A stretch of 63,561 nucleotides of DNA, filler included, from Asterionella formosa (lineage: Eukaryota), in assembly GCA_002256025.1 (NCBI GenBank). It is 11 parts of 11 records of this genome, joined end to end, with 100 filler letters (N's around TTAATTAATTAA, not from the genome) between each part and the next. Parts side by side here need not be neighbours in the genome. Positions count along the whole stretch, not along the records: positions 40,844 to 58,713 come from NKIB01004238.1; 10 more parts are not named here. One strand, given 5' to 3'. A program made the position numbers and the translations under genes. The notes beneath the pieces are model-generated. The model saw nothing but the letters and a program-made list of their open reading frames with translations. It searched no databases and had not been told where the DNA came from. Positions 39,532 to 58,143 of this stretch are shown here, piece after piece (the first letter of the stretch is position 1; each line of letters starts with the position of its first letter).

Positions 39532-40863
39532 NNNNNNNNNNNNNNNNNNNNNNNNNNNNNNNNNNNNNNNNNNNNTTAATTAATTAANNNNNNNNNNNNN
39601 NNNNNNNNNNNNNNNNNNNNNNNNNNNNNNNGGAAAAAACCCTTTGACTTTCCCTCCCTCCCAACTTTCCTTTCTCATTTGACCTTGATTTGTTATTGGT
39701 ATGCATGTTTAGCAGAGAAGTAAGAGTTCTCGCCTTCTTGTACCTTTAGTGTGATTCACTGGGCATTCAAGTTAACAATCAGATCTATTTCCACCTGTTT
39801 CAAATCAGCAGCAGGTTGGCTCTCTTGTAGGTTCACCCAGAATTGACCTGCATCAAACTATTGAAATGCTAGGCTCGCTGTTGGCCGGGAAATAGAATGG
39901 ATGGAAAGGGGCCAAAGTACCCAGCAGCTTATCAATGTACTTAATAACATTAATAACAAAGAAAACACGTTTATTCAATCTTACTGTATGTTAAAGCTCG
40001 CAAATAAGCGAGCTCGTGCCCACATCAATGGAAACAATTAGTACCAATTTTATTGGTCTGTATGGTAAAATGGGACCTGTCTCCTTGTCAACCACACACC
40101 CCAAAACCCTAGGGACTACATCAACGAAAGGCGGTTGGAGAAAACATAATCGAATCCACCACATCATGAGGTGTGCCAACCGCTATGCCATTCCCCTAAT
40201 AAATAATATTTTAAAAAATTACTACAAGCTTAGAATTAGGTACAAAATTTTACAGACTGTGAAAATGACTATTGAAGCTATGAAGAAAATCAGGCCTTCC
40301 AGTGCATCAAAAATGGAATTGAAATTGATGATTGAAATCGTTTGAACTTGAAAATCTTTCTCTTCAATGTTGCTATTTACATTTTAGACTATGGCAAAAA
40401 TGGCGAAGTTGGTTTGCTCATTGTGTTTAGCACTCAAGGAATGCCCAATGTTATGCACCCCTTCTAAGGAATACCAATCGCGGTGGTATACATTGAGGGG
40501 GTACAATAAACTGTAGCTACCACTTAAAAACTAAAAGCGACCACCTGAGGACCTCTGAACTGTATGTCACTGCTAAATGGGGTAAATCCAAAATTTATTA
40601 ACTTTTTCTGCAAGATACAATAATTATTGTTACAAAAGAGTTGATCGGATGAATATGACGAGTGAATACTATCAGCATACATACTTGTTTTGTTCCATTG
40701 CTTGCGTAAATTGTTAATTATGAATTATGGCCAAAAGGTTGCTNNNNNNNNNNNNNNNNNNNNNNNNNNNNNNNNNNNNNNNNNNNNTTAATTAATTAAN
40801 NNNNNNNNNNNNNNNNNNNNNNNNNNNNNNNNNNNNNNNNNNNGTAACAACCCTTTAATAACT

Positions 40864-41526
40864 ATGGCATACACATCTCTTTCGGGTTCCAAACTCCGCG
40901 CCAAACTTGGTGGTTCTCTCAATGAATCCGCCAGTGCCCCAACGAGTACCTTTGCCAAGAAACAATTGGAGAAATTGGGGTGGTCGGAGGGTAAGGGACT
41001 TGGAAAGCAAGAACAGGGAATCACTACGCACATTAGGGTCAAGAAGCGTGAAAATGATGTGGGGTTGGGACACTCTGTTTCGGCACAAGCACAAACCATG
41101 TGGTGGGCGGATTCGTGTGGAGACGTACTTTCGAGACTGTCGGGAAAGAAGAAAGTTACCATGACAGACGAAGCACTCTTTGATGCAACGGGTGGAGCGA
41201 GATTTGGAATGAGAGCTCAGAGGAAGCAGACAGGCAAGTGGTCGAGAGCAGAAAAGGAGGATGCCAAGGCAGAAGAGGAAGCGACAGCCAAGGTGGAATG
41301 GAACGGCACTGGGGAGGCCAAGGTGATATTGTCGAAGAGTAAATCAAAGAGAATGACAGCGGCAGAAATTGAGGGCGGAAGTGATGAACCAAAACTGAAA
41401 AAGACGAGATGTGATACTACACCAAATGAGAAAATAGAAGAAAACTCTGAGTCTATTAAAAAACCCAAGAAGAGTAAGAAAGAAAAGAAAGCAAAGAAGG
41501 CGATAAAGAACAAAACGAAGCATTAA
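40864..41526 (+). CDS. GPATCH4: G-patch domain nucleolar protein (GPATCH4/PINX1-like)
   Basis: G-patch FAKKQLEKLGWSEGKGLGKQEQGI...GLG, then WW and TDEALFDATGG motifs as in GPATCH4; Lys-rich tail. Confidence 0.75.
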   Translation: MAYTSLSGSKLRAKLGGSLNESASAPTSTFAKKQLEKLGWSEGKGLGKQEQGITTHIRVKKRENDVGLGHSVSAQAQTMWWADSCGDVLSRLSGKKKVTMTDEALFDATGGARFGMRAQRKQTGKWSRAEKEDAKAEEEATAKVEWNGTGEAKVILSKSKSKRMTAAEIEGGSDEPKLKKTRCDTTPNEKIEENSESIKKPKKSKKEKKAKKAIKNKTKH

Positions 41527-42087
41527 TGGATGGGTCACTCTATTGTTGTATATATGACGCGATTTAACTACCTGTGGATTTCAAGTGAAAGGTTGTTACT
41601 TGCAAACCATTGTTTATTTCCACCATCAACAGGAAACAATCTGAGCCCTTTGCCACTCTTTGAAACTCAATTGTATCTCTTAAGAAGGTAGGGAAGTAGA
41701 ATTTTTCAACCTCATCAAGGTCGGTATATGGCACCGGTTGTTACATGCCTGTAGCATCCACCGTAACCCCTCCCGTTGACTTGAAACATGGAGGCCAATG
41801 CGCTACAAAGTTTTGTCAAATCGACATGACAAGAAACTTACACATCAACATTGGACTCTGAAGGAGGCAACGGATGCAATGATCTTTGTGCCGAATGTTT
41901 GAACGCGCATTTGGAAGCCAAATGAAAAATTAAATGAATCCAGCACTCAGACCATAGCAACTTGGAGAAACGAAGTAGCGAAAAACAACCAGGTAGAAAT
42001 TACATTGGCAATATTCCTGAAGTGTTCATGGTAGTCTACTATTGTTATGCAGCGATAGATACTAACGTGAGGTTGTCCATCCAAACC

Positions 42088-42411
42088 TTACACGGTGACT
42101 TCGGCGTACTGTCCCGGTTGCAAGAATGCAATGGGCTTTTGGCCCATGGCCAATTCCCAGCTCTGCAGTTCAATCTGGGTGGTTCCATCCTTGCGAAAGT
42201 CTTGGACAACCCCGGTTCCGTAGATGGACTTGACGGTGGTCCCATTCTTGACTCCGACGGTGAATTGTCCCTCGGCCAAGTAAGCAAAAGGCGCCTGCCC
42301 ACCAGCCAACACCCAGCTCTCAATCTTCACAACAGCAGCACCATTATCGCGGCAATCTTCGACGGTTCCGACACCGTAAATGCTCATAACTCTATCTCCA
42401 ACAGTGACCAT
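42088..42411 (-). CDS. 107-aa protein of two tandem SH3/KOW/Tudor-like beta repeats
   Basis: V.SIYG.G.V.D.R..G......SW.LA.GQ.P.A.L..GQ[FY] occurs twice; coding-like composition. Confidence 0.8.
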   Translation of the reverse strand: MVTVGDRVMSIYGVGTVEDCRDNGAAVVKIESWVLAGGQAPFAYLAEGQFTVGVKNGTTVKSIYGTGVVQDFRKDGTTQIELQSWELAMGQKPIAFLQPGQYAEVTV

Positions 42412-42565
42412 GGTTGCGCTTTATTTCAACACTAAAGGTGTAGATGTATGTGATGGAACCTTCCGATTGTATGAACCGGTATATGATATACTTGAAACGA
42501 AACCAACTGCAGCCAATGCTTGCCATGACCGTGGCACATGTGTATGTGTATCGCGTTGTACAGAC

Positions 42566-42614
42566 TACCTGGTACCAGTACCAGGGTACCGGTACCGGGT
42601 ATATGCCCCGGTAC
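42566..42614. repeat. GGTACC micro-array in the divergent promoter region
   Basis: tacctggtaccagtaccagggtaccggtaccgggtatatgccccggtac between head-to-head genes. Confidence 0.8.
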
Positions 42615-42919
42615 AATGATGCCGACAAAATACTAAGCACGTTCCCTATCCGGGTTTTCTTCAATTTCCCGCCTATCAAGATTTTTCGCGCCAAACTCAA
42701 AATTTTATTGACCCGCACGACCTAGGTTGAAGCAAATCAAATTATTGTCGTGGTGGAGGCAATGCCCATCAACATATCCCACCACCTTTCCTCATGGCAT
42801 TGCCAAATATGTACGCTATCAGTACAACGGCCGATGCCTTCTCTCGATTTTCCCATGAACCATCACAGTCTTCGTTGCCAAAATCTCCAATCCGCACAAC
42901 CAGAAAGCTTGAGAGAACC

Positions 42920-43786
42920 ATGATAATCGCAACCACCCTCGTTCTCGGTCTCCTTCCTGTCGTGTCATCACTTTCCACAGTTGTCTTTGGCCCACAATCG
43001 AGAGAACTTCTGTTACTGACTGCTAAAATTGCCGCTCGCGAAGGAATTATCACTAGCTGCATTTGTTCCGAAGGTACCGAAATTGGATGCAGACGTTTAA
43101 TGTATGGCATGGAATATGCCGATATTGGAGTGGACGAATCTGACAAGGCCCGACCAATCTCAGCTGGAACAGACATTGGGAATGCATTGGAGGCATGTCA
43201 CTCGATTACCTTGATTAACTACGATACCCCTGTCGAACAGAGTCTACTAAATACTCTGATTCAAAATGCTGGGCCCAATTTATCCAAGATTGTTGTTCTT
43301 GCCAAAATGGGCATAACCCGGGCCAAGAGTGGCTTCTTTGGTGGTTCTGACGCAACATTGCTGGAAGCGGAAAACAGAATCCGAAAGGTATGTGCAGAAA
43401 AAAACCTTGCACTCTCCATTGTTCGCGCTGGCGTGCTCAAGGGTGGTGGTCCCGGTAGTGATGGAAATGACTTTGGAATGAATAAGGTATACTATAATAC
43501 CATCTTTGACATTGTTGAGGCCAACGTGGCCATGGCTCATGACAAGTTTTCGATTGGAGCTGAGGTGGAAGCAGGTGATCCAGTTGATTTACCCAACATT
43601 CTGTCCCAAATGGCAACAAAATCTTCCTTTGAACCAAAACGTGGGGAAACAAATAGAATTGTAGCAGCTGGGGCAACTGTTGCTGCGCTACTACATCCCG
43701 ATCCAGTAGAGGTTTCCATCTCAAGTATCAAATCAGACCAGTTGCCGACAATGTTGGAGTGGAAGAAACTATTTTCAAAAATATAG
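42920..43786 (+). CDS. Signal-peptide-bearing (probably plastid) atypical NAD(P)-binding Rossmann-like protein
   Basis: Hydrophobic N-terminus MIIATTLVLGLLPVVSS|L. LLEAENRIR...LSIVRAGVLKGGGPG and ETNRIVAAGATVAAL resemble atypical SDR (NmrA/Tic62-like) motifs. Confidence 0.7.
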   Translation: MIIATTLVLGLLPVVSSLSTVVFGPQSRELLLLTAKIAAREGIITSCICSEGTEIGCRRLMYGMEYADIGVDESDKARPISAGTDIGNALEACHSITLINYDTPVEQSLLNTLIQNAGPNLSKIVVLAKMGITRAKSGFFGGSDATLLEAENRIRKVCAEKNLALSIVRAGVLKGGGPGSDGNDFGMNKVYYNTIFDIVEANVAMAHDKFSIGAEVEAGDPVDLPNILSQMATKSSFEPKRGETNRIVAAGATVAALLHPDPVEVSISSIKSDQLPTMLEWKKLFSKI

Positions 43787-44314
43787 ATTTAAGAGGCATA
43801 AATTGGAAAAATGGAAAAAAAGTATTTTTCCATTATTCTCATATGTGGCTCCAATGCAAATTTTTTTGAATCAGTGTGTGAAGCGAATTGGAAAAATGAC
43901 GATTTCAACTGGAGATCTCAATTGTCCGTTGGTTTTGTGCCATTATTGTCATCTGTGAAAAATAGATTGTTAAGTGCCTTAAGCATCACATCATGCAATC
44001 AAGTTGAGATGTGCAAATTTATTCAGGACTATGTGATTAAGGCCACGCCAAGTCAATGAAACAAGCCTGACAAATCAATATGCTCACAACGAATTCCAGC
44101 AGACTTGCCTTCTTTTACTCTGTATGTCCTCTTGTTTCCATAGAGCCATTATTAGGTCCATGGGGAAGTTTAGCTTTGTTAGATGGCACATCATCTGAAG
44201 ACCAGATCCCATGGTTATTCTGCCATGACATGGAATATCTCCTGAAAGCTATCTGCTTCGCTTCTGTTAAAAATGGGAGGCAATGCTCTATCTCGGGATT
44301 GTAGGTCAAATCCT

Positions 44315-44392
44315 GTTAGATGGCTGATTGGCATGGCAATGCAAGGTTCGACTCATTGGATTACAATCGAGTCCACAATCCTCGTGACTCTA
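44315..44392 (-). mobile_element. LTR-like fragment (tgtcaag family); may extend to a ttaaca end at about 43968
   Basis: Reverse complement gagtcacgaggattgtggactcgattgtaatccaatgagtcgaa...gcattgcca...aatcagc..tctaac matches the 59309 copy. Confidence 0.7.
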
Positions 44393-45356
44393 NNNNNNNN
44401 NNNNNNNNNNNNNNNNNNNNNNNNNNNNNNNNNNNNNNNNNNNNNNNNNNNNNNNNNNNNNNNNNNNNNNNNNNNNNNNNNNNNNNNNNNNNNNNNNNNN
44501 NNNNNNNNNNNNNNNNNNNNNNNNNNNNNNNNNNNNNNNNNNNNNNNNNNNNNNNNNNNNNNNNNNNNNNNNNNNNNNNNNNNNNNNNNNNNNNNNNNNN
44601 NNNNNNNNNNNNNNNNNNNNNNNNNNNNNNNNNNNNNNNNNNNNNNNNNNNNNNNNNNNNNNNNNNNNNNNNNNNNNNNNNNNNNNNNNNNNNNNNNNNN
44701 NNNNNNNNNNNNNNNNNNNNNNNNNNNNNNNNNNNNNNNNNNNNNNNNNNNNNNNNNNNNNNNNNNNNNNNNNNNNNNNNNNNNNNNNNNNNNNNNNNNN
44801 NNNNNNNNNNNNNNNNNNNNNNNNNNNNNNNNNNNNNNNNNNNNNNNNNNNNNNNNNNNNNNNNNNNNNNNNNNNNNNNNNNNNNNNNNNNNNNNNNNNN
44901 NNNNNNNNNNNNNNNNNNNNNNNNNNNNNNNNNNNNNCACATGGAATTGTTCTTGATCCGCCATCATGTGCTGCATTTTCTTACTGTAAGATTTTCTCAA
45001 CAGATCAGTCCTTTCGAAGGTGTGTGTATTGATCGTTATCTTGATTGCTCATGGGTTTGTTGGAACGTCGACTTTACTTCATATGAACCTTAGTTGAACA
45101 CACAAGATGCTGCGAGACGATTCAGCCGAAGGGGCGACAATCCAGAGTTTGACGGTGTTGAAAGCAGTGTCATCATTGCCTCGCAATATCACGTGAGGGA
45201 CCCAGAACCAGTTACCGGTCCTCTTTTCACTATGGAGAGCTATAGCAACTCACGTTTCTGTCGGAATCCTGCCTTCGTCCGATGACTCTCTCGTATCTTC
45301 TATTCTCACACATATCCTCCTTTGTTACTTCAGCATTTTACCTTACTTCCGCCACA

Positions 45357-45605
45357 ATGCCAGCTGATTTGTTGAACCCCACCCCAGAGTTGGAACTCAG
45401 AACCCACAAACTTAAGCGTCTTGTGCAAAGCCCAAACTCTTTCTTTATGGATATTAAGTGCCCTGGATGCTTTCAAATTACGACTGTTTTTAGCCACGCG
45501 CAAACAGTTGTCTTGTGCGGAAACTGCAATATCATGCTCTGCCAACCAACTGGAGGTCGAGCCCGTCTGACTGAAGGATGCTCCTACCGAAAGAAGGTTG
45601 AATAA
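45357..45605 (+). CDS. RPS27: 40S ribosomal protein S27 (eS27)
   Basis: DLLNP...[41 protein letters not shown]...[20 protein letters not shown]. Confidence 0.98.
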
Positions 45606-45822
45606 TGCTTCAAAATAGAGACAAGCTTTGAAAAACATGATGAGTTATCGTGTAGCCTCCCTCCGCCAAACTATAATTGAGCTAGGCAAATGTTGGCACA
45701 TTGATTGCAGTGAAATAAAGGTAGAATATTAAGATTTTGAAGAATCGTGAAGCTTAAGGAATCAATACTAGGGCGTGCGCGTTTTGCATGCGTTCAAGGT
45801 AAAGCTAAGAATTGTCTTCATG

Positions 45823-48800
45823 TCATGTGAACGTTTTGCTCATTGCATTAGCAGTTGAAGCACACTGGTAGCTCCAGTTTGCTGCAATCAGTGCCTTTTG
45901 GGCCAACACGCTCGAATAGTCTGATACTCCGTCGGAGGTGCAGTGACGAAACTGGATTCCAAGTGTAGGACCAGATGCATTGAAGCCCCTACTAGTTAGC
46001 GCGACAAGACGAGAGTACGTCCTAGACAATGGATAGAGTAGGTCAAGATTAGCCCAGGATCGTTGTCCAGGGCCCTCGTAGTTGACCGCCTCTTCCGATA
46101 CAAAAGAGCTCCACTCAAGTATACGAGTATGGTTCCGGAGGAGTTTCCAAGCATAATCTGAATCAGTGTAGATGTCGACCTTAGCTTTGAGCAAACTAGA
46201 ATTGCTATTGATTTCAGCTTCTTGATTCAATAATTGTAGGATCACTTTGAGGGCGTCGTGACAGGCGTAAAGCTCACAGCGATTGCGTGATGGTCGCAAA
46301 TACGGATAACCATTAAGAATTGATCCTTGAGTATAGCATGTACCTCCCTCATTTTCAGGCATAATCTGTGCAAAACTTCGTATGGTTGCTTGGCGAAGAC
46401 GTTCGACCAGAGCTTCGCTTCCGTGTGCGACCTGAGGAAAGTACAAACACATACCGCCTGCTCGACGAAACCCCCTGACCTGCTCAAAATCATCGGCAGG
46501 AAAAGGTCGACCTGCTACGTAAACAACAAAGGGAACAATATCTTTATCGTAGCAGAATTCCAAAGGATAGGTTGAATTCAGAATAGCATTCCTCAGACTT
46601 TGTGCCGGTTCCTCGTTTCTTTCGCCTTGCTTTGGTCGAAATTGCCTTTTCTGAATCGAATTCGTATAAGAAGTAGTTCTAACCTGTATGGATGATGCAG
46701 GTAACGCAAGTTCAGCGTATGCATACGTATTTCCATTGAACACCTTGCCACTTCGACATAACGCATAGATTTTCTGCAAGCTGATATCAAGCTTCGTTGC
46801 TGCATCCTTCGCGCTAGAATATCTTGCAGGAACTTCGTTGGGATCCAAGCTAATTTCGATGACAGGTCGCGAAAACTTGTTGTTGGTGTTGTTCTGGCGT
46901 CGAATTAGGACATTTTCCAATGGTATCCCAGACAACAACCCCAACTTGAGCCTCTTCTCAAGTGCTTCCGCTGTCAAGAAAAGCAGGGATGGATTCATCA
47001 GCAAAACTTGCCTAATGTCGCCATTGGGACTCAAAGCATCTTGTATCATGTCAATTTTGGGTCCTAGCGATGTTTTGATGCTAAACTTCACTATTCTGGG
47101 CGCTGCACACATGAGATCTCGAAGCTGACAGGTAGAAAGGTCCAATCGTTTCTGCAAAAACTGAAGAGTCGGCAACAGATTACGCTTCCAGCTCAACGTC
47201 AATAGGTCCGGATTCTTAATTAGGGTGAAACCCATTTGTGACTCTGACATTTCACAATAGTCCATGAAGGCTTGGGCAGTTGGACGGAGATTTTCTTCGA
47301 GGGATAATCCAAGAAGTAGTGGCGTAATCTTAATCATATTTCGTAGACCCGTTCGTGGAATGCTCAAATCATCGAGAAAAAATGCAACCTTTGGACGCAA
47401 AGAATTTTCAATGCTGGAATGAAGTAATGAGGGTTGCTTCAGGGCCATTTTTGATAACTCATCCCGAGTCAACCCGATTTCATCAATGAAAAACGACAAT
47501 CTTGGTTGAAGTCCATTTTCTATTGACATTCCAACGAGCGAAGGCATACGTAGCATAATTTTTCGCGTATCTTTGGATGATAATCCAAGTCCCTTCTGTA
47601 TGGCGTTCAAAGTGGGAAGAATATTGTGCGGTACACTGTAACTGACCAAGCTCGAATGAGTCTTTATCATGGCCTGTACTGTGCCAGTGGAAACTTGTAG
47701 TCTCGCTCGGAGATAGTGCAATGCGTGTTCCTTGAATACAAATCTTGTCGCACTTTTGTGATACATTACCCAAGCAGGATCCGTATCACATGTCACTAAA
47801 GAAGGAAAGGCTTGAAGCAAAATTTTCAACTGGCTCCAACTAGCTCCTATCGACTTCACATACGCCACCATACTAACATCCGACGGAGTGGCACCGTCCA
47901 GGTAATCGAACAGAGTTTCTCTGACTTCATCACATAATTCTTTGGGAACTTGTAGAGTTTGATAAAAATACAGGAAGTTGGGCTTTTGCGCTGCATCTTC
48001 ATAGTACATGGCAAGTATGTGCGGAATGCCCTTCACTATCAGTCTTACTTGGTCTTTTGTAAATCCAGTACCGAAACCTTTCGCTGCTAAAAGTGGCCAA
48101 TCAATATGACTGGTATTCAAATAATTCGCTGGTGGAATAGGTGACAGCAGAAATCGTAACCGCTCGGCAACTTCCTTGGGGTCGTACAAACAGACTTGTG
48201 GAAAATTGTGAACGACGCTCTGTTTAGCCACAGCTGGAGTGAACCCAATTTGATTCAACAGGTGAAGAAGGTTGGCGTAGTTTGAGCTAATGGTAGTATT
48301 CGTATGCGTGAGGAACCTAAATTTCCCCACCCGATCGGCGAGATATCCGACTATGGATACAGTCGTCGACCCGGTTACCAAGTTAGACAATGTCAGCAGT
48401 GCTTGGTAACCCCGTTGAGTTCGCTCTCGAAGCTCTTCTCCAGAGATGACCTGTCGATACAAAGTTTGTTCATCCTTGCCGCCACCTGCAACAATCCCCA
48501 AATCTGGAAGCTCGTTGTCAAAGGTCTGGAACCCCATTATCGCAAATTGAGCACTCGGGTAAGCCTCGATTGCATCGTCGAAGAACTCAAAGCTTTCCAC
48601 CAGTCTTGAGTCTTGATAGACTGCGTGCCGTTGAAAATTGTTTGAAAAACGAATAGTTACAGGCCCATTGAAATCTTCCAAATCTCTTTCATTCAGTTTG
48701 GCATGTTCTAGATGCGCTTTGGTGATGGCATGTAGAAGGAAGGTTGGACAAGAGCCCGCATTTCTTCCTCTGGAACTAATGGACAGAAATGCCCTAGTTT

Positions 48801-48849
48801 GGATTAACGAGATGCACAAACATAACCAAATAGTGCACGAGCACTGCAT
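45823..48849 (-). CDS. Plastid-targeted mTERF-repeat protein with NUMOD1-like HTH and C-terminal RNase H-like domain
   Basis: Signal peptide ...IQTRA|FLS. Many mTERF repeats (PSLVGMSIENGLQPRLSFF, PSLLHSSIENSLRPKVAFF, PLLLGLSLEENLRP, PDLLTLSWKRNLLPTLQFL). YSSAKDAATKLDIS..KIYALCRSGK. RNRCELYA, VDIYTDSDY, NLDL, IQFRH. Confidence 0.88.
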   Translation of the reverse strand: MQCSCTIWLCLCISLIQTRAFLSISSRGRNAGSCPTFLLHAITKAHLEHAKLNERDLEDFNGPVTIRFSNNFQRHAVYQDSRLVESFEFFDDAIEAYPSAQFAIMGFQTFDNELPDLGIVAGGGKDEQTLYRQVISGEELRERTQRGYQALLTLSNLVTGSTTVSIVGYLADRVGKFRFLTHTNTTISSNYANLLHLLNQIGFTPAVAKQSVVHNFPQVCLYDPKEVAERLRFLLSPIPPANYLNTSHIDWPLLAAKGFGTGFTKDQVRLIVKGIPHILAMYYEDAAQKPNFLYFYQTLQVPKELCDEVRETLFDYLDGATPSDVSMVAYVKSIGASWSQLKILLQAFPSLVTCDTDPAWVMYHKSATRFVFKEHALHYLRARLQVSTGTVQAMIKTHSSLVSYSVPHNILPTLNAIQKGLGLSSKDTRKIMLRMPSLVGMSIENGLQPRLSFFIDEIGLTRDELSKMALKQPSLLHSSIENSLRPKVAFFLDDLSIPRTGLRNMIKITPLLLGLSLEENLRPTAQAFMDYCEMSESQMGFTLIKNPDLLTLSWKRNLLPTLQFLQKRLDLSTCQLRDLMCAAPRIVKFSIKTSLGPKIDMIQDALSPNGDIRQVLLMNPSLLFLTAEALEKRLKLGLLSGIPLENVLIRRQNNTNNKFSRPVIEISLDPNEVPARYSSAKDAATKLDISLQKIYALCRSGKVFNGNTYAYAELALPASSIQVRTTSYTNSIQKRQFRPKQGERNEEPAQSLRNAILNSTYPLEFCYDKDIVPFVVYVAGRPFPADDFEQVRGFRRAGGMCLYFPQVAHGSEALVERLRQATIRSFAQIMPENEGGTCYTQGSILNGYPYLRPSRNRCELYACHDALKVILQLLNQEAEINSNSSLLKAKVDIYTDSDYAWKLLRNHTRILEWSSFVSEEAVNYEGPGQRSWANLDLLYPLSRTYSRLVALTSRGFNASGPTLGIQFRHCTSDGVSDYSSVLAQKALIAANWSYQCASTANAMSKTFT

Positions 48850-49449
48850 TATTGTAATGTAAACGACAAAATTTCACGTCTCAAAGAAGTGTTAGAAGAG
48901 CTGCTGAACTTGAACAGTCATCATCACCAACCACAAATATCATCATGGTGACCGTGCGTAGCCCATTTTTGAGGAGCAGGCGGCCCTGAATTCACCATGT
49001 GATGCATGTACAGTAGCAGGTACCCCTGGTGCCCTTGCATGCAACTCATACACCGGTAGGTATAACTAGTATTCGGTACATACCCGGTATTTTGAACATG
49101 GGACTGAATTACGACGAATTGCGGGGTAGCAGCATGGTACCTGGTTACCTGGCATGTAGTAGAGTCCTTCATCAGTATCATAAAAAATGCCTTACTACCG
49201 GCATCATTCTTGAATTCAAACCATGCGTCAGTCTTCATTTTGTGTGGTATTTGTTCACTTTTTCTTTTTGGACAGAAAATTCTATCCGTCGTAGTGACAG
49301 CTACAGCACTAGTAATTAACTAGCACCGTGTACAAAGGTAGTGATCATGAATGTTAGTGATTTCGCTGTGATCATCTTGTTACAACCAAAACCAAACTCT
49401 CTTTCTTCTTGCCCATGGCTTGAAGTTTTTTCTTTCAAAAAATAAGTAA

Positions 49450-50045
49450 ATGTCCATTTATTCTGTATGTGATCAATATTGTCTTTTGATGACAACAACA
49501 GGATTTTTAAGAGGTGAATCACTTTTTAATTGCAAACTTAGCAAATTTGGTTCTTTGTTGCACAACAACAAGGATAAAAATAGTCTCAAGGATATTTTAA
49601 TTCATGTGATGTGCATTGCTACAACTGGGAAAACAAATGGGTTAAAGGCTCTTCATGGATGTTGTATCCAACATCATAATGTTAATGAGTGTACTACTCT
49701 TCTTGGTATGCTTGGATTTTATTTAATGGCAAGATGTATGCAGAGTGGAGAAGCATAATCCTTTGATTTTACTTTAAACCAAGCCTGGTTCAACATTAAG
49801 TTGTTGACGGATTCTTGGGGCTTCGACAACAAAATTCAGTAACTGATCAGGCATATGCAAGTAATAAGACAAATGCTTGCAGATATCTTGGCATTATTTA
49901 GAAACATTTTGTGCGTTTTGGTCGATCGGCTGGTTCAGTTAAAGCAGAATTGGATGAATTTGATGGCTATAACATCAACAACCTTGGGAATTGGAATGTG
50001 GATACTCGTCGTGATGTTTATTCAGCTAAGCTGCCAATGAGAGGT
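49450..50045 (+). pseudogene. Degenerate Crypton-like / NDC10-II-type tyrosine recombinase, running into an N gap
   Basis: LMTTTGFLRGESLF, GKTNGLK, LGFYLMAR, FDFTLNQAWFNIKLL, HFVRFGRSAGSVKAEL...LGNW...DVYSAKLPM, in the order R-K-xxxR-W-Y of tyrosine recombinases. Contains a stop and frameshifts. Confidence 0.75.
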
Positions 50046-53034
50046 NNNNNNNNNNNNNNNNNNNNNNNNNNNNNNNNNNNNNNNNNNNNNNNNNNNNNNN
50101 NNNNNNNNNNNNNNNNNNNNNNNNNNNNNNNNNNNNNNNNNNNNNNNNNNNNNNNNNNNNNNNNNNNNNNNNNNNNNNNNNNNNNNNNNNNNNNNNNNNN
50201 NNNNNNNNNNNNNNNNNNNNNNNNNNNNNNNNNNNNNNNNNNNNNNNNNNNNNNNNNNNNNNNNNNNNNNNNNNNNNNNNNNNNNNNNNNNNNNNNNNNN
50301 NNNNNNNNNNNNNNNNNNNNNNNNNNNNNNNNNNNNNNNNNNNNNNNNNNNNNNNNNNNNNNNNNNNNNNNNNNNNNNNNNNNNNNNNNNNNNNNNNNNN
50401 NNNNNNNNNNNNNNNNNNNNNNNNNNNNNNNNNNNNNNNNNNNNNNNNNNNNNNNNNNNNNNNNNNNNNNNNNNNNNNNNNNNNNNNNNNNNNNNNNNNN
50501 NNNNNNNNNNNNNNNNNNNNNNNNNNNNNNNNNNNNNNNNNNNNNNNNNNNNNNNNNNNNNNNNNNNNNNNNNNNNNNNNNNNNNNNNNNNNNNNNNNNN
50601 NNNNNNNNNNNNNNNNNNNNNNNNNNNNNNNNNNNNNNNNNNNNNNNNNNNNNNNNNNNNNNNNNNNNNNNNNNNNNNNNNNNNNNNNNNNNNNNNNNNN
50701 NNNNNNNNNNNNNNNNNNNNNNNNNNNNNNNNNNNNNNNNNNNNNNNNNNNNNNNNNNNNNNNNNNNNNNNNNNNNNNNNNNNNNNNNNNNNNNNNNNNN
50801 NNNNNNNNNNNNNNNNNNNNNNNNNNNNNNNNNNNNNNNNNNNNNNNNNNNNNNNNNNNNNNNNNNNNNNNNNNNNNNNNNNNNNNNNNNNNNNNNNNNN
50901 NNNNNNNNNNNNNNNNNNNNNNNNNNNNNNNNNNNNNNNNNNNNNNNNNNNNNNNNNNNNNNNNNNNNNNNNNNNNNNNNNNNNNNNNNNNNNNNNNNNN
51001 NNNNNNNNNNNNNNNNNNNNNNCGTTATTTATAGGGTCGGAGCAGCCGCCATTTGAAGATTAGCAGTCATGCGACCGTCTTTTTCTGACACAATTATCAA
51101 CCAGTTGTCATCGAGAGAGAAAGTACTGGTGGGCCTTGCATTGTGTCGTTGTCCGCAACGGAAAGGTTCATGTTTGCATCTTGTGGAGCATCTGTAGCAA
51201 AGTGTCGACGCTTCCTGCACTGCTTGTATTTGAATTTGTATTCAAAAAGAGACACCAAAGACGACGTGGTTACATAGCAACAACGCAACAACGAGGAGGC
51301 ACGGCTCTCATAGCAGCTTCTTTGGAAAAAGGTCATCAAAGTCAAGGCTCATCGCACTACTGCTAATGAAGAATCCACAAAGACGACTGATACAAGGCGA
51401 GATTTTGTGCATTGGGGAGCTGCAGCAGTCAAGCACGACCATAATTGTTTTGCGATTTTAATGGAAGATAAAATTTACTATCGCTACTTACTGGAGGGAG
51501 ACGATCAGCCAGGTTGCTTTGTACTGATGACCATCACTGTATTATATCATGGTATAGTGTTTATATTCTGAATTGGTATATAATAACCAGGTTATTAAAA
51601 TTGCTTTTCTTTATGGTTATTTGTCATCAGGTCTGACTTGGTGGTGTCAGACTTTGGACTCAAGTCCAGACTTGGTATAAACAACTGCTGATGCAACTTA
51701 GAGGGAGTGCCAGGGTATTCCCTGTTCCCTGCTGGGTGGCAAGCAACTAATATTACTACAACTTGTACCACTGGACTCGGAACTCTGGCAAATTATTCAT
51801 TATCTTCACCACCAGGCAGCCGATGCAGCCAGGTGGATGACAGGACAATATGCATGTGTTGTCTACTGGTACTAGTAGTCATGTGATGGTGGTCCATTAA
51901 TGTTGGACTATTGGAATATCATTGCATATTGGTGTGACGATGCAAAATACTAATAGGGACATACAAACATTTGATTTGACGATGAGATTATGGTGTCCAG
52001 TGAATAAACCATTTGATTAAATTATTTCTTTTTGAGTCCAGTGGCATATGTTTTTGTCGTGATTCCCTCAAAAATCGCGTATATTTCACTTGCTACAGAG
52101 TGAGCTAAAGTTGATTTAATCATTATTTGCTTGCTGGGTTGAGATCATCCTAGTCTTGGAAACGTGAGGAAGTGAAGCCTGAAGCTCCATTGTGAACAAA
52201 CTTGTTTTCTAGTCATTTAGCTCATGAATGCCCATGTGAAAGACAAAAAGGATTATCAATCATTTTTGCTCTTTGTCAGGTTTGATCAGTCCACTCATGC
52301 TGTCCACTCCTGGGAATCCCACTCCGTCGAAAAGGATGTGTTTATTAATAAAAGTACTGGATACACGAATACTCTGTTTATTCAACGAGTGCTCAACCAA
52401 TGCAATTTCCTGTACAGGTAGGTACCAGGTACATTACAAGGTATGCTTCTTAGGAGCTACATGTATTTCCTGGTAGGTATAGGATGTAAACCCACTCCTT
52501 CCATTTGTTTCTTTCGTGCTTTTTAAATCAAGTAATTTGAAATTCTTTGGCAGGCAGGCCGGCCGTGCGCGCGATGTATTATCAACTCGCACAGAAATAT
52601 CATCGGGACATCGTTGCTTGCGGTTCCTCAATTTGAGGTCCTGTCTATCTGCTTAAGTAACCTTTGTCATGGAGTATTTATACATAGTCAACTCAGGACC
52701 ACTTCGTATCTGTGGAGCATTATATTCAGTCATGATCAAGAATTCGGCCAGCATACACACATATTACTATGAAAACGAAATTTTAAATGATAACAGCGAG
52801 TCCCGTTGCGCAAGCAAGGTCCTCCCTCACCTGCTCGGAGGACATCATATGTTGACAAGGTCACCGTGTACCGCATTGTACTGTACATACACATGTTTTG
52901 TTTGTTTTGGTATGTGTTTTATGTGCTCCACTTCGGAGTCTCCTGCATGACACATTTCAAGGCATCAAATACAGTCAAATTGTCGGCGGGAAAGGGCTCA
53001 CTTTCTCCCCATTATCATACCGATTAAACTAGAA

Positions 53035-54909
53035 ATGAAAGTCCATTCTTTAACTTGCAAGATGAGAATCGCAGCGCTCGCGTTGGTGGTAGCTACGCAC
53101 TTGGTTATTGCAGCCGCTTCCTGTGTACCGGTTTGCGTGGGCCGCCCGCAGGTCGTCAGCGCATGCGATACGTTCTCTGGAACTAGTAACAATTTCCTTG
53201 AAACTTGTGTCTGCGATCGTGTTGTGACGGTGAATTGGCAAAATTGCAATCCACAGGCAGATGATCAGGTTGGCATCTACAACTGCAAAGGATATGATCA
53301 CACAGTCTATAACTACGAACCATTCGCCGCCACAGATACTGGAGCATTGGACACGATGGGAACGATGTCGTTTCCAGATGCACCTGACGCATATACATGC
53401 ACGTGCTTGGTGGCCATCATGAACAGAAATGTCAGCGGAAATATTCCGCCCTATGATATTGTTATCGAAGGTACGGAATTCATTATTCCTGGCAGCTCTT
53501 GTGCGCCTTCAGCTGCTCCGCAAACTGCTGTTCCTACTGTCATTGCGTCTGGTGTGGCAGAAACTCCAGCTCCTTCTGGCAGTTACGGTAAGGTAACCCC
53601 TTCGCCTTCTGCAGTTGTATCTGGTGCTGCGGTGACCCCTGCTCCTTCTGGAGCTTATCCTGCTGCTATCGCGACTCCTGCGCCTTCTGGAGTTGGTTCT
53701 GGTGATGTGGTAACCCTTGCTCCTTCTGGAGCTTATCCTGTTGCTGCGGTGACCCTTGCTCCTTCTGGAGCTTATCCTGTTGCTGCGGTGACCCTTGCTC
53801 CTTCTGGAGCTTATCCTGTTGCTGTGGACACTCGTACGCCTTCTGGAGCTACTCCTGTTGCAATGGTGACTTCTGCGCCTTCTGGAGTTGGTTCTGGTCC
53901 TGTGGTGACGTCTCCGCCTTCTGGAGGTTATCCTGCGTCTTCGGTGAGTCCTGCCCCTTCTGGAGTAGGTAGTGATGGTGCGGCGACTCCTGCACCTTCT
54001 GAAAGTTCACTTTCTCCGGTATCTGCTACTCCGGTAACTGCTCCTTCTGGAGGCTCGGTCGCTCCAGTTGCTTCGCTTACACCTGTTCCCTCTGGAGTAA
54101 ATCCTGGTGGTGTAGAGACCTCTCCTCCTTCTGGTGGATATGGTATGATGACTCCTGCGCCCTCTTCAGTTGGATCTGACGGATCGTTATCTTCTGCGCC
54201 TCAACGTGGGCCTGTTCCCAACTGTACTGGTGTTGCGGAAGATCCCTACGAATATTTCGGTAACGGCTTTTTCATCCCTTGTTGCGACATTGCGGAGCAA
54301 TGCCTTAAGGACTGGAACAACAATAGCCGCGTATACTATCGTTGTGTGGAGCCAGGCACTTGTGACTCTAACCTTGTTGACCCAGGAGAAACTCCATCTG
54401 TCTGTACTCTCGTCAACAATGATCCTTACCAGGTGTACGGGAACGGGTCGTTCATTCCTTGCTGCAACCCTAGCACGCAGTGCCTCAACACCTGGGATGG
54501 CGATGACCGTTACTATTTCCGATGTGTTACCGACTGTTACCCAGCAATAATCCCCTCTCCAGTGTGCACCAGTCGAGACCAAGATCCATTTCAATTCTTT
54601 GGCAATGGAACTGAAAACGTCTGTTGCCCTGGGCTTGTTCACTGCTTGGACGACTGGAACAACATTGACCGATTTTATTATCGCTGCCTGGAATGTTGTG
54701 CTAATAGCTGTCCAGCGGACAAAAATCCATCTCCGACGTCAAGCAAGCCAGGTGTGAGATCGGATCAACTTGCTAATTATGTTCCGAAGCCTGGCGAGGT
54801 AGGTGTTTTTGTGTCCAAGTCAACGCTTGCAAGCAGTGGAGCTATCCATATGGTAGTGTCCGTCACTGGCATTTTGGTGGGCGCTTTTGTTTGCGTTTTT
54901 ATTTCTTAA
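53035..54909 (+). CDS. Secreted, C-terminally anchored mucin-like surface protein with TPAPSG repeats and three Cys-rich modules (ATG may be 53062)
   Basis: Signal peptide MRIAALALVVATHLVIAAA; Cys-rich N-domain; ~13-aa P/S/T/A/G repeats; three C-x5-DP[YF]-x3-GNG-x4-CC-x5-CL-xx-W-x4-R-x-Y[YF]RC modules; hydrophobic C-terminal end. Confidence 0.88.
   Translation: MKVHSLTCKMRIAALALVVATHLVIAAASCVPVCVGRPQVVSACDTFSGTSNNFLETCVCDRVVTVNWQNCNPQADDQVGIYNCKGYDHTVYNYEPFAATDTGALDTMGTMSFPDAPDAYTCTCLVAIMNRNVSGNIPPYDIVIEGTEFIIPGSSCAPSAAPQTAVPTVIASGVAETPAPSGSYGKVTPSPSAVVSGAAVTPAPSGAYPAAIATPAPSGVGSGDVVTLAPSGAYPVAAVTLAPSGAYPVAAVTLAPSGAYPVAVDTRTPSGATPVAMVTSAPSGVGSGPVVTSPPSGGYPASSVSPAPSGVGSDGAATPAPSESSLSPVSATPVTAPSGGSVAPVASLTPVPSGVNPGGVETSPPSGGYGMMTPAPSSVGSDGSLSSAPQRGPVPNCTGVAEDPYEYFGNGFFIPCCDIAEQCLKDWNNNSRVYYRCVEPGTCDSNLVDPGETPSVCTLVNNDPYQVYGNGSFIPCCNPSTQCLNTWDGDDRYYFRCVTDCYPAIIPSPVCTSRDQDPFQFFGNGTENVCCPGLVHCLDDWNNIDRFYYRCLECCANSCPADKNPSPTSSKPGVRSDQLANYVPKPGEVGVFVSKSTLASSGAIHMVVSVTGILVGAFVCVFIS
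53630..53950 (+). repeat. 39-bp coding tandem repeat (VTLAPSGAYPVAA)
   Basis: Near-identical units gtgacccttgctccttctggagcttatcctgttgctgcg at about 53710-53826, diverging outward. Confidence 0.9.
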
Positions 54910-55547
54910 TCAAGGTATTGTTGTCGTCACCATTGGTTTGCAAGAACCCCCCCATGGAACGCAAAATTCCAATTTCAAACAACCAAATTTATTCATAAAA
55001 CAGATGGTGCATATTTAGTCCTTAAAGTTTTATTATTTGTTCATGGTTGAAGGGATTGTCACTTTATTATTTCTCTTGCTTTGTTCAAGCACTCGAAATG
55101 GTAAGCCCGAATGTCTGATCATTGCAGCACCCTCGGACTTAAAATAGATCACCTTTCAATTATGCACACTCTAGTACCGGTAGTACACTGAACCACTAAC
55201 CGTATCCTTGACGACCCAAGACTTGAATGATTCCTAATTAATTATAATTTGCTGGAAAATATCTCACCTTCCCCATCATCTGCCGAAACTTGCGGTCGTG
55301 TAAAGGTGACTTCGAAGAATATGAAAATGATGAAATAAGTTCGGAAAGTGAAACTGGCAGACGGATATGGTTTCTTCGACCCAGGGATACTCCATTGGGT
55401 AATTCAATTCCGAAATTCCTAATCATTTTTCAGGCTTTGTTTCACAAAGAAAAAAAAACATGCCACAAATGTGTCAAGGGTAGTGACAAACGACAAGGCA
55501 ATAGGATGGCACTGATCTCGCCCCTGCGACAGGAGGTTATCTCATGT

Positions 55548-56388
55548 TCAATGTTTCGTTTTGATAGTATCCAATCCAATTTCGACATTTCCAACAATAG
55601 GAAATCCCTTTCCTGGGCCTTTCTCACCAAGAAAAAATAGCACTGCTGTTCGACCAACACAATGTAGGATTGTCATGGTATCGTAGCCACCGAATCTTGT
55701 TCGTGTCCCCATGGGAGGCTGAGGTTTGCCCGGTTTAATCATTCTAGAATACAACACTGCACTTGGAGGCAGTGAAGGAAAGTCAACTTCCATTTCCATG
55801 AGAACTTCTTCCTCTCGTAGGTTTGGAGTATAAATCAAGTTAATGTGAGAGTGATCTGGCGAAACGCCAAAGGGTGTTCCACAACACGAAGAATAAATAC
55901 GTCGTTTGTCTGTCGTGGTAGACAACTTGACAGACTGCAAATACTCACGGCCCTTGACCATTTGGATCTCTGAGTCGTGCACCAATAAATGCTGGGCGCC
56001 TGGCGAGCAGAAGTTATCAAGCTTGGCAGATCCAGATTCGAGAACCTAACCAGGACGAAGCAAAGAGGAGAAGCGAACTGTGAGTGACCTTTGTGTTGAC
56101 TTTACATTGAGCAGAGAAATTCAACCTTTCACTCACCCTTTCACAAAATCCAACACAATCACAGCAAGCACATTGGAAGGATGGAATCTCACTGTATCGA
56201 TAGTTAGCAGCAGGTATGATGATGCTAGCTTCCACCTCCCCACAAGAGCACCTGTAACTGGCGCGTCGTGTCTTGGTCTCTGTTGTGCTACGCTCTATGA
56301 TCCAATACAATCCAAAGGCAGATAGAGTTGCAGCGGCAGTGGCGCCCACTACTACCAATGACTTGAGAATGGAGGAGGACTCTGGCAT
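55548..56388 (-). CDS. GFA/CENP-V/Mss4-like zinc-binding protein with N-terminal membrane anchor; join(complement 56137..56388, 55548..56045)
   Basis: CSCGEV...CACCDC in exon 1 and IQMVKGREYL...RIYSSCCGTP in exon 2. Phase-0 intron GTGAGT...TTAG keeps the frame. Confidence 0.82.
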
Positions 56389-56907
56389 TGCTGATATTGG
56401 GTTGTTGACTTTGACCTCAAATCAGCCTCTTTGAAATGTTACAAATGTGCATTTTAATTTAACGTGATGTACCAAAAATTGTGAAGGGACAGGAGGTGCT
56501 TGTTAGTTCTTGTATCGTAGTCTAAGAGTTTTGTTACATTGGAATACTATAGCTACTAGTAGACTATTTGGGGATTTAACAATAAGTGAATTCAGTTATT
56601 GTTGTTTATGATGTGGCATTCATACATGATGAGAACCCCCCGTGCAGGTGTGTCAGGTGTACCGTTATTTGATTTTCGCCTCCCAACGAAAATAAGGAAT
56701 GCCGGTACCGGTACGGAGGCAGGCTTGCTAATACCACGATGGCAGGTAGTTACATGTTCAACACAAGAAACTCAGAGTCGCCAGGACCTAAGGAGCAACT
56801 CCTACGTTTATTGGTTGATACAAAGAAATAAATACTTTGTTGTTATTGGTTACTTTATGGATGTAGACTACCGGCAGTGATTCCGGTCAATCGACGCGAC
56901 AAAGAAT

Positions 56908-58143
56908 TTATCCCATCAACAAAAAGTCTCCACCATCTTCGGTCTTGATTCTGTTATTGATTTGACCCTTGACTTTAACCTTGCGCCGCTTTCCTTGGAC
57001 CACCTTTTTCATGTCACCAAAATGTTTTCGATCCGTCATTTTTCGATCTCGAAAGGATTCAAATCGATCTTCCACCAGTGATCCTTTGGGTCTGACGGTT
57101 CGCAACGACGACGACAGCTCGGATGTGAGTGCCACAGGAAAGGTGGGGACGTTGGTAGGATCCTTTTCACTCAAATGTTGGAAGACGTCCTTTCCCAACG
57201 TGCGCTCCGTCTGTACCTTCAGCTGCTTGACCATTTGCTTACGTTCCTTGTTGGCGGCCAATTTGGATTGAATGTCTTTGGAGTATTTCTTCAAGTCTGC
57301 CACTGAATTCAATAGCTTCTTAACTTGTTTGCGTTCAAAAATTTCCTTGAGTTCCGCCCTATGTCTCTTTTGCTTGTTGCGTTGGGCACGGGTCAGCTTT
57401 TCCTTTCTCTTTTGCAGAACGATCGGTTCGTCATTATTGTCGTCGTCGTCACTTTCTTCGTCGTCATCGCTCCCCACCAGAAGCGCCTTGGTTTCTTCTG
57501 TGAGCCCGGCACTAATTGGTGCAGCCTTATAGTCTTCAGCTTCCTTTCGTCGCAATTCCAACGCCAGTGCTTCTCCAATAACGTTTTGATGTTGCGTAAT
57601 ATCTGGATGATAGGATTGCCCCGACTGAGCCACTTGTAGTGCCACAGCCTTGAAAGTGGACTTGGCGGCCACCATGGGACGAGTCGTCATGTGAGCCGGA
57701 GCAGTTCCGGCCAAGGACATGCCAATGCCAGGCGACGAGACTGGTTTTACCTTCTGCTTCTTCCCCACAACCGCATCCTCGAAACCCCACAAATCAAATC
57801 CAGGTCGGCAATTTCCGATCGTCCGCTTGTTGCGACGAAGCCTATCCAAGGAGCCCACCGCTTGTTGCAATTCAGATTTGCTCTTCGTTTCCACCAAGGC
57901 TTGCACTTTCTTTTGGTCTCCTTTTGGTAATCCACTGTGTTTGACTGTCGACTTAGTCTTGACCTTGTTTGGAACTGGCAACACTGCAGCAGCGTCTGTG
58001 TCCAAGACAAACAGCGCATCATCAGTTTTGGATGTGACATGCTGTTCTTCCACCTCCTTGGCGCCAGCTTCGATAAGTTCCTTGGCCGCGAGAACACCTC
58101 GCTGAATGGCCCGCTGTTTGGATCCAGTTGCCTTTTTCCCCAT
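56908..58143 (-). CDS. NOP53: Ribosome biogenesis protein NOP53 (GLTSCR2)
   Basis: LFVLD motif, DLW, GQSYHP...HQ, KLTRAQRNKQKR, ELSSSLRTVRPKGSLVEDRFESF. Confidence 0.92.
   Translation of the reverse strand: MGKKATGSKQRAIQRGVLAAKELIEAGAKEVEEQHVTSKTDDALFVLDTDAAAVLPVPNKVKTKSTVKHSGLPKGDQKKVQALVETKSKSELQQAVGSLDRLRRNKRTIGNCRPGFDLWGFEDAVVGKKQKVKPVSSPGIGMSLAGTAPAHMTTRPMVAAKSTFKAVALQVAQSGQSYHPDITQHQNVIGEALALELRRKEAEDYKAAPISAGLTEETKALLVGSDDDEESDDDDNNDEPIVLQKRKEKLTRAQRNKQKRHRAELKEIFERKQVKKLLNSVADLKKYSKDIQSKLAANKERKQMVKQLKVQTERTLGKDVFQHLSEKDPTNVPTFPVALTSELSSSLRTVRPKGSLVEDRFESFRDRKMTDRKHFGDMKKVVQGKRRKVKVKGQINNRIKTEDGGDFLLMG

Follow-up and report, generated by a model that had tools for sequence, protein, structure and literature searches.

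A conserved mTERF subfamily, represented in Asterionella formosa, that joins a NUMOD1-like helix-turn-helix to a predicted RNase H fold without the catalytic tetrad

A gene of Asterionella formosa raises the question of what use an mTERF protein, predicted to be sent to the plastid, could have for two further modules at its C-terminal end, one resembling the helix-turn-helix (HTH) that homing endonucleases use to bind DNA and the other the fold of type-1 RNase H. The gene lies in a window of 63,561 nucleotides (the whole stretch of DNA that was analysed, made of 11 parts of 11 records of assembly GCA_002256025.1 joined end to end with 100 filler letters between each part and the next), within the part at positions 40,844 to 58,713 that comes from record NKIB01004238.1. 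An initial annotation had described here one uninterrupted open reading frame (ORF) encoding a bipartite presequence, mTERF repeats, a NUMOD1-like module and an apparently inactive RNase HI-like domain. The ORF does run for 1008 codons on the minus strand, 45823..48849, without a stop, and a motif look-up places every quoted string where it had been reported: VYVAG starts at residue 776, NRCEL at 856, YTDSDY at 894, NLDL at 934 and IQFRH at 965, whereas the HTH string PVIEI...YSSAKDAATKLDIS..KIYALC..GK occupies residues 662–702 and QTRA/F residues 17–21. Taken by itself, the architecture of an mTERF solenoid, an HTH and an RNase H fold is, in our judgement, very probable. The parts of the protein, given in window coordinates, are the following.

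45823..48849, minus strand: the whole ORF (P0001), 1008 amino acids plus stop, intronless, no internal stop.
48790..48849, minus strand: signal-peptide-like hydrophobic segment, residues 1–20, ending in TRA and followed by F21 (an ASAFAP-like junction), recognized from sequence.
48670..48789, minus strand: transit-peptide-like stretch of putative function, residues 21–60, with E48 as its first acidic residue.
48442..48669, minus strand: small α/β N-terminal domain, residues 61–136 (alignment A1 and AlphaFold2 model).
46906..48441, minus strand: helical solenoid, residues 137–648 (AlphaFold2, Pfam and Foldseek).
46711..46872, minus strand: NUMOD1/I-HmuI-like HTH, residues 660–713, with a basic patch ahead of it (profile and model).
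46540..46710, minus strand: poorly conserved linker, residues 714–770, with a predicted local distance difference test score (pLDDT) below 50 at residues 719–738.
45829..46539, minus strand: pseudo-RNase H domain, residues 771–1007, with a predicted type-1 RNase H fold that lacks the DEDD tetrad (Foldseek, VIA and hhalign).

The assignment of the C-terminal domain is carried mainly by its modelled structure. An AlphaFold2 model of residues 640–1008, computed with nine relatives (pLDDT 71.8), was compared with the PDB using Foldseek, which returned 21 matches at E ≤ 1e-3; all of the matches shown were type-1 RNases H, among them the gammaretroviral RNase H (E 5e-5), E. coli RNase HI (1.4e-4) and human RNase H1 (3.6e-4). 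In VIA-align, the foamy virus reverse transcriptase RNase H, the N-terminal domain of Rv2228c and human RNase H1 matched with Z-scores of 12.5, 12.4 and 12.3, respectively, the human alignment including 148 of 149 residues with a root-mean-square deviation of 3.4 and 20% identity. These matches span model residues 132–355, corresponding to residues 771–994 of the protein, and RNase H entries recur when the model of the full-length chain is used as the Foldseek query. Sequence profiles point in the same direction: hhalign aligned the domain profile (A3) to E. coli RNase HI with an E-value of 0.0016, and the Pfam family RNase_H (PF00075) matched residues 846–907 with 16.3 bits (cut-off 25.8, E 0.012) and, also below threshold, 6 of 10 orthologues (best E 0.0096). 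Between strands 2 and 3 the domain has a helical insert of about 39 residues (804–842). We conclude that the C-terminal domain, as modelled, has a type-1 RNase H fold, which is defined by a five-stranded sheet and helices A, B, D and E; the RNase HI-like domain that had been placed at 45870–46535 (residues 772–993) is thus confirmed within slightly wider limits (residues 771–1007), and a C-terminus devoid of this fold, which would have overturned the original interpretation, was not what the model yielded.

The retention or loss of the catalytic residues is a separate matter. The register of the two central positions is given by hhalign, which pairs YLRPSRNRCEL with YTRTTNNRMEL and VDIYTDSDY with VILSTDSQY (profile A3 against E. 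coli RNase HI), so that E859 corresponds to E48 and D896 to D70; the TDS motif was also aligned to TDSQY of HIV RNase H in a profile alignment. The four positions, in E. coli numbering, are occupied as follows.

46513..46515, minus strand: A779, at the position of catalytic D10 (motif VVYVAG against EIFTDG).
46273..46275, minus strand: E859, at the position of catalytic E48 (hhalign).
46162..46164, minus strand: D896, at the position of catalytic D70 (hhalign and the HIV profile alignment).
45889..45891, minus strand: L987, most likely at the position of D134 (A-L-I-A-A, or more generally A-K/L-x-A-A, against A-D-x-L-A), a presumed register.

Already from the single sequence it had been suspected that the first catalytic Asp was replaced (VYVAG for VYTDG) and that the final Asp of the ADxLA motif was missing. 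Both readings hold up in an orthologue alignment of the D-E-D-D positions, extended to a census of the family. The D10 column is acidic in 0 of 99 sequences (S 53, A 25, T 16), the E48 column in 40 of 115 (E 20, D 20; S 55, G 10), the D70 column in 116 of 128 (D 102, E 14) and the D134 column in 3 of 107 (K 37, R 22, L 11, Q 11, E 3); at the H124 column, His is present in 63 of 110. Only columns 786, 896 and 936 are at least 70% acidic in the entire domain, and none of the columns of residues 970–1000 reaches this level in any register, which leaves the last helix without a conserved acid. The census shows that, as far as alignment can tell, three of the four catalytic carboxylate positions have been lost at the level of the family. 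Judged by the residues that define the enzyme family, the domain is therefore predicted to be inactive, a state that would predate the diversification of its own family; at most, it would work like a catalytically dead RNase H, and on the same criterion it would not be counted among the enzymes.

The acidic residues that do persist invite the opposite suggestion, namely that the domain is still a nuclease that operates through a non-canonical metal site (for instance, D896 together with column 786) and acts as a site-directed endonuclease on hybrids or RNA. The conservation of D896 (116/128) and the acidity of column 786 (89/102) are compatible with such a site, and one of the type-1 RNases H matched by fold (4ibn) has an active-site motif that is rearranged. 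The RNase H fold uses a two-metal active site, however, for which two conserved acids are too few, and the complete lack of acids at the D10 position (0/99), the frequent Ser at the E48 position (55/115) and the last helix without a conserved acid all make continued catalysis unlikely.

The same combination of domains recurs well beyond the window. A phmmer search with residues 738–1008 against 1.84 billion representatives retrieved 132 proteins at E ≤ 1e-3 (99 of them at E ≤ 1e-10), these being representatives at 50% identity; the RNase H-like domain is always C-terminal among them, and no canonical RNase H was found among the 132 matches. Nine relatives share the same domain order throughout (alignment A1). 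Pfam was run on 85 of the 132 representatives, the other 47, nearly all short pieces, having been left out, and detected mTERF in 51 of 59 (E ≤ 0.01) and in 23 of 26 (E ≤ 0.001). All 66 scanned representatives of at least 500 residues have an mTERF match, and the 11 that lack one measure 352–494 residues. Stand-alone RNase H-like proteins were considered and rejected: several of the mTERF-less representatives start inside the last mTERF repeats (A3) and look like fragments. The nearest relatives are 63–66% identical overall (A1) and 57–59% identical over the last 369 residues (A2), and in view of these similar values the pseudo-enzyme part appears to be about as constrained as the rest of the protein. 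Identical 1008-residue proteins are present in several sources. In the collections, annotation goes no further than "hypothetical protein", the precomputed Pfam label is mTERF only, and none of 10 clusters that were looked up carries an informative name. The literature searched, which included few subscription journals and no supplements, yielded no account of an mTERF combined with either an RNase H-like or a NUMOD module and, among the matches listed, nothing relevant on mTERF proteins of diatoms or stramenopiles. The protein is filed as an mTERF family member, and the family to which it belongs is a conserved, so far undescribed mTERF subfamily, in which annotation limited to mTERF or hypothetical has let the HTH and the RNase H fold escape notice.

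A fusion of this kind could have been produced by two adjacent genes, or by an assembly chimera, seen as one ORF. RNA cover was therefore examined in four runs (X1, X2, X5 and X7). A polyA transcriptomic run, X1, gave a single 3453-nucleotide contig that is colinear with positions 45462–48914, differs from them by one letter, has neither gap nor joint, and extends from 65 nucleotides upstream of the ATG to 361 nucleotides past the stop, so that the transcript does not appear to end before the C-terminal domain, an outcome that would have undone the original interpretation. In runs X2, X5 and X7, the ORF is covered by overlapping or adjacent contigs with no joint reported inside it. Among the 20 listed runs that match all or part of the stretch, 19 are recorded as RNA and 9 match half or more of the words sampled from it. 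The contigs differ within the ORF by 12 single bases, of which 9 are synonymous, including all 3 in the last third. Contigs from RNA libraries prove neither the strand nor a single molecule, and alone they cannot establish that there is one transcript; it is the recurrence of the domain order in the nine relatives, the mTERF match in 66 of 66 representatives of at least 500 residues, the spanning contig and the identical proteins in several sources that together lead us to reject the gene-fusion artefact, which we regard as practically excluded. Upstream of the ORF, positions 49007–49147 have no RNA-contig cover in X1, X5 and X7, a weak hint that this interval marks the 5' limit of the transcript.

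If the domain no longer cuts, residues that contact the substrate might nonetheless have been kept. In part of the published account of human RNase H1 (PMC5363678), Arg179, Thr181 and Asn240 are described as forming a pocket for a phosphate of the DNA strand, and Phe213, Trp221 and Trp225 as lining the DNA channel. Two elements of the protein correspond to the pocket.

46288..46296, minus strand: R852-P853-S854, against E. coli R41-T42-T43 (human R179 and T181; hhalign).
46048..46050, minus strand: N934 of ANLDLL, the presumed equivalent of E. coli N100 and human N240 (motif and spacing).

R852 and S854 lie 7 and 5 residues before the catalytic Glu position, as R179 and T181 do before E186. 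Among 115 sequences the R852 column has R in 85 and K in 7 more, the S854 column has S in 111 and T in 4, and R857 is kept in 114. Y899, which is placed at E. coli Y73 and human F213, is retained in 113 of 126 sequences, and the N934 column has N in 115 of 122, with D936 conserved in 119 of 122. The most conserved columns include P784, R792, G793, G798, G799, P853, S854, R857, C858, S897, Y899, N934, D936, A989 and A990. The domain is also basic, with a median isoelectric point of 9.2, above 8 in 77 of 93 near-complete domains, and 8.2 in the window protein. The equivalents of the DNA-phosphate pocket thus seem to be kept in the family, with N934 placed by motif and spacing, and because of this conservation and of the basic character of the domain, the possibility that it reads RNA:DNA hybrids gains some support.

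Ahead of the linker, the module that had been called NUMOD1-like (46715–46870, residues 660–712) is upheld in its placement and by repeated matches; the formal assignment fares less well, with no match above curated cut-offs. The full-length AlphaFold2 model has a β-β-α-α-β arrangement at residues 663–711. In the window protein, HTH_17 matches residues 680–702 with 22.1 bits (cut-off 27, E 1.9e-4), and no NUMOD family of Pfam was matched at E ≤ 1. Among the 10 orthologues, 3 matched NUMOD1 (PF07453; best E 1.6e-4) and 2 the I-HmuI_NUMOD-like family (PF22083), all below threshold, and NUMOD1 was matched at E ≤ 0.01 in 6 of 59 wider representatives, again below the cut-off. The whole-family profile A2 matched the C-terminal DNA-binding region of I-HmuI in the PDB (1u3e, E 0.0041), and a profile of the 60-residue module alone, from 21 members (A5), matched residues 119–170 of I-HmuI (1u3e_M) over 52 residues with an E-value of 0.0046. 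The best PDB match of A5, ahead of I-HmuI, is a 66-residue chain, sCTP-23166 (8b6e_A), at E 1.6e-4. In the ESM Atlas, the nearest named clusters were phage NUMOD proteins, with a score of 0.85 that serves as a lead only. On this sub-threshold but consistent evidence, we use "NUMOD1-like HTH" as a description of the putative module and not as a statement of formal membership. The HTH is present as a tandem duplicate in family members P0106 and P0115, and P0043, P0109, P0014 and P0037 are among the members without a recognizable HTH in the aligned segment.

The larger part of the protein is the solenoid. Pfam mTERF (PF02536) matches residues 384–635 with 101.6 bits against a cut-off of 23.1 (E 5e-29) and was matched in all 10 aligned orthologues. 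The full-length AlphaFold2 model (m67fafd006034; 75 relatives, pLDDT 87.7, predicted template-modelling score, pTM, 0.83) has about eight regular three-helix mTERF repeats of about 37 residues at 374–648, after a less regular helical part, and agrees well with the repeats that had been recognized at 46950–48300 (residues 184–634), the modelled solenoid as a whole comprising residues 137–648. The top-ranked Foldseek matches of this model are MTERF3 (3m66, E 2.8e-6, template-modelling score on the target 0.62) and DNA-bound MTERF1 (3mvb, E 3.5e-6), so that the model agrees with the left-handed helical repeat fold of solved mTERF proteins. A single-sequence phmmer search of the PDB with the whole protein gave a weak match to MTERF3 and one to a designed repeat protein, and none to RNase H. 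The solenoid is preceded by a small α/β domain with strands at residues 64–69, 74–79 and 82–87 (pLDDT 93–96) and, in alignment A1, the motifs Y-S-x-N-F-x-R-H (FQRH), SFEF.DDA.EAYP (SFEFLDDA.EAYP) and VAGGG. This domain, residues 61–136, has no Pfam match, and an ESM Atlas query with residues 58–140 gave nothing usable; a domain of the same type directly follows the presequence in most full-length family members.

The presequence itself bears on where the protein acts. A signal peptide, a small residue followed by Phe or Trp and an acid-poor stretch form the bipartite signal that directs proteins to the plastid in diatoms and their relatives, the presequence pattern that was reportedly described for diatoms by Kilian and Kroth and by Gruber et al. 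(ASAFind). The N-terminus has a hydrophobic stretch rich in Cys, Leu and Ile, then TRA/F, and the next 27 residues are free of acids; residues 1–42 have pLDDT below 50 in the full-length model, as a disordered presequence would. The bipartite presequence proposed at this junction was assessed with a crude script that requires a hydrophobic 10-mer followed by [AGSC][FW], with no more than one acid among the 20 residues after that. The window protein and 22 of 33 full-length family members were positive, compared to 3.5 of 33 shuffled N-termini and to 4 of 33 and 0 of 33 internal windows. The result is support and not proof, since the script was written after the sequences had been inspected. 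The protein is probably located in the plastid. It could instead act in another compartment, the mitochondrion, the periplastidial space or the secretory path, as mTERF proteins are mitochondrial in animals and dual in plants and as 11 of the 33 full-length members fail the test; the hydrophobic segment, the Phe after a small residue, the acid-poor stretch and the margin of 22 over 3.5 of 33 speak against this and make it improbable.

Put together, these elements suggest a plastid-targeted protein in which an mTERF solenoid and an HTH are combined with a dead RNase H, acting as a site-anchored reader of RNA:DNA hybrids that does not cleave them. The initial annotation had likewise proposed a sequence-guided reader of R-loops or hybrids in the control of plastid transcription and replication, an interpretation of which the structural half is supported here. 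The solenoid and the HTH would anchor the protein to defined sites of plastid DNA, and the RNase H module would bind, without cutting, a hybrid formed at such a site, which might belong to a nascent transcript, to an R-loop or to a primer; the protein may then mark, stabilize or shield the hybrid, and its binding might be coupled to transcription pausing or termination or to replication. According to the portions available of two reports (PMC10761990, PMC12652420), Arabidopsis chloroplast RNase H1 removes R-loops and relaxes head-on conflicts between transcription and replication, and this use of an active RNase H1 on R-loops in chloroplasts makes a plastid R-loop setting plausible. The statement as a whole is put forward tentatively, with a likelihood that we place somewhat short of even. 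A bolder version, in which an ancient, natural R-loop reader based on a dead RNase H, conserved across the algae with complex plastids and programmable, clamps the hybrid at fixed plastid sites as protection of a primer R-loop or as a signal for pausing or termination, is more doubtful.

The main rival of hybrid reading takes the protein to be a factor directed at RNA, in which the solenoid binds plastid RNA (an rRNA, an intron or a transcript end) and the dead fold is a module for duplex or structured RNA or a dock for proteins, with no hybrid involved. Plant mTERF4 and mTERF9 and human MTERF4 act on RNA, and Prp8 has an inactive RNase H-like docking domain. MTERF4-NSUN4 on ribosome assembly intermediates and the mTERF protein of the Tetrahymena mitoribosome are among the fold matches of the solenoid, the loss of catalytic residues would be expected of a scaffold, and the pTM of 0.83 for the whole chain suggests that the domains are packed as one body. 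Against an RNA-directed role, the HTH resembles a module with which homing endonucleases bind double-stranded DNA, DNA-bound MTERF1 is among the best matches of the solenoid, and conservation in the RNase H-like domain falls on the residues with which human RNase H1 grips the DNA strand. We consider the RNA-directed role possible, though not probable.

Several further points weigh against a site-anchored, non-cleaving hybrid reader. Many mTERF proteins act on RNA or on ribosomes rather than on DNA, and MTERF4 and a ribosomal mTERF are represented among the fold matches. In the window protein, PF00075 as well as NUMOD1 and HTH_17 score under their Pfam cut-offs. When profile A3 was compared with PDB sequences, the best E-values, 0.058–0.08, were shared by HIV RNase H with its TDSQY motif (about 0.07) and by an unrelated chain, MEF2; by itself, this search was rejected as evidence. 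The equivalences of L987 with D134 and of N934 with N240 depend on motif and spacing, the D/E of column 786 (89 of 102) could in principle serve a non-canonical site, and the presequence test was designed with the sequences already in view.

The gene lies in eukaryotic nuclear DNA. Three neighbours in the same part of the window were recognized.

45282–45605, plus strand: gene for ribosomal protein S27e (PF01667, E 1e-25), facing the mTERF gene in convergent orientation.
40864–41526, plus strand: G-patch domain protein (E 1e-14).
56908–58143, minus strand: homologue of the ribosome-biogenesis protein Nop53 (E 3e-35).

These neighbours are ordinary nuclear genes and confirm the eukaryotic nuclear context. 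The mTERF gene, likewise nuclear and devoid of introns, belongs to a diatom-like alga. The listed ORF of S27e begins upstream of what is probably its real start (MPADLL...). Reaching position 45462, the spanning mTERF contig overlaps the last 144 or so nucleotides of the S27e frame on the opposite strand, which reflects either overlapping 3' ends of the two genes or a merge by the assembler. Within the S27e gene, which is highly covered (depth 2971), one X2 contig connects position 45338 to position 45604 on the opposite strand, a joint that looks like a hairpin-type artefact of assembly or library. Runs of N occur near the locus at about 44390–44950 (X in the ORFs at 44320–45093) and at about 50000–52000; the bin 50001–52000 has a G+C fraction of 0.219, and the N runs are assembly gaps.

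The coordination of plastid gene expression and replication is little known in diatoms and related groups, whose share of primary production is large. Should the C-terminal domain bind hybrids, the family would represent in nature what the engineered dead RNase H probes are in the laboratory, and would offer a direct handle on plastid R-loops; should it not, the family would still plainly exemplify how a nuclease fold has become a non-catalytic module of an organellar repeat protein.

Several parts of the protein have known counterparts. With the mTERF family (human MTERF1–4, plant mTERF1–35, Chlamydomonas MOC1) it shares the repeat solenoid, its fold and the predicted targeting to an organelle, but whereas the solved mTERF proteins among the matches listed have 270–400 residues, the present one has about 1000 and adds an HTH, an RNase H fold and, at the N-terminal end, a further conserved domain. 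The C-terminal domain resembles type-1 RNases H (E. coli HI, human H1 and retroviral) with Z-scores of 11–12.5, nearly full coverage and 19–20% identity to the human and E. coli enzymes, and its SRNRCEL and TDSDY align to TNNRMEL and TDSQY; it differs in the absence of the DEDD tetrad, a Pfam score below the cut-off, the helical insert of about 39 residues and a longer, non-basic region in place of the basic protrusion. The putative HTH carries the pattern V..l..dG...eF.S..eAA...G.s.s.iy...r.g....G..y.Y, which aligns over 52 residues with I-HmuI (1u3e), a protein with an HTH of the NUMOD type, although, unlike in the homing endonucleases of phages and introns, it is found without a homing nuclease, in a eukaryotic nuclear gene, and with scores below curated cut-offs. 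In the PPR-SMR proteins, the PPR-LAGLIDADG protein OTP51 and the OPR/FASTK-RAP proteins of organelles, an array of repeats that chooses the target is joined to a nuclease-fold domain that is often inactive; the logic of the design is alike, whereas the type of repeat and the nuclease fold differ. A further parallel to the proposed reader is the laboratory probe for R-loops based on dead RNase H1 (D210N), complexes of which with hybrids (2qk9, 2qkb and 2qkk) are among the fold matches. Both would employ an RNase H fold to bind a hybrid without cutting it, which for the present family is a prediction; in the probe the change is engineered at D210, whereas here the loss is natural and apparently ancient, affects D10, D134 and often E48, and leaves the equivalent of D210 in place.

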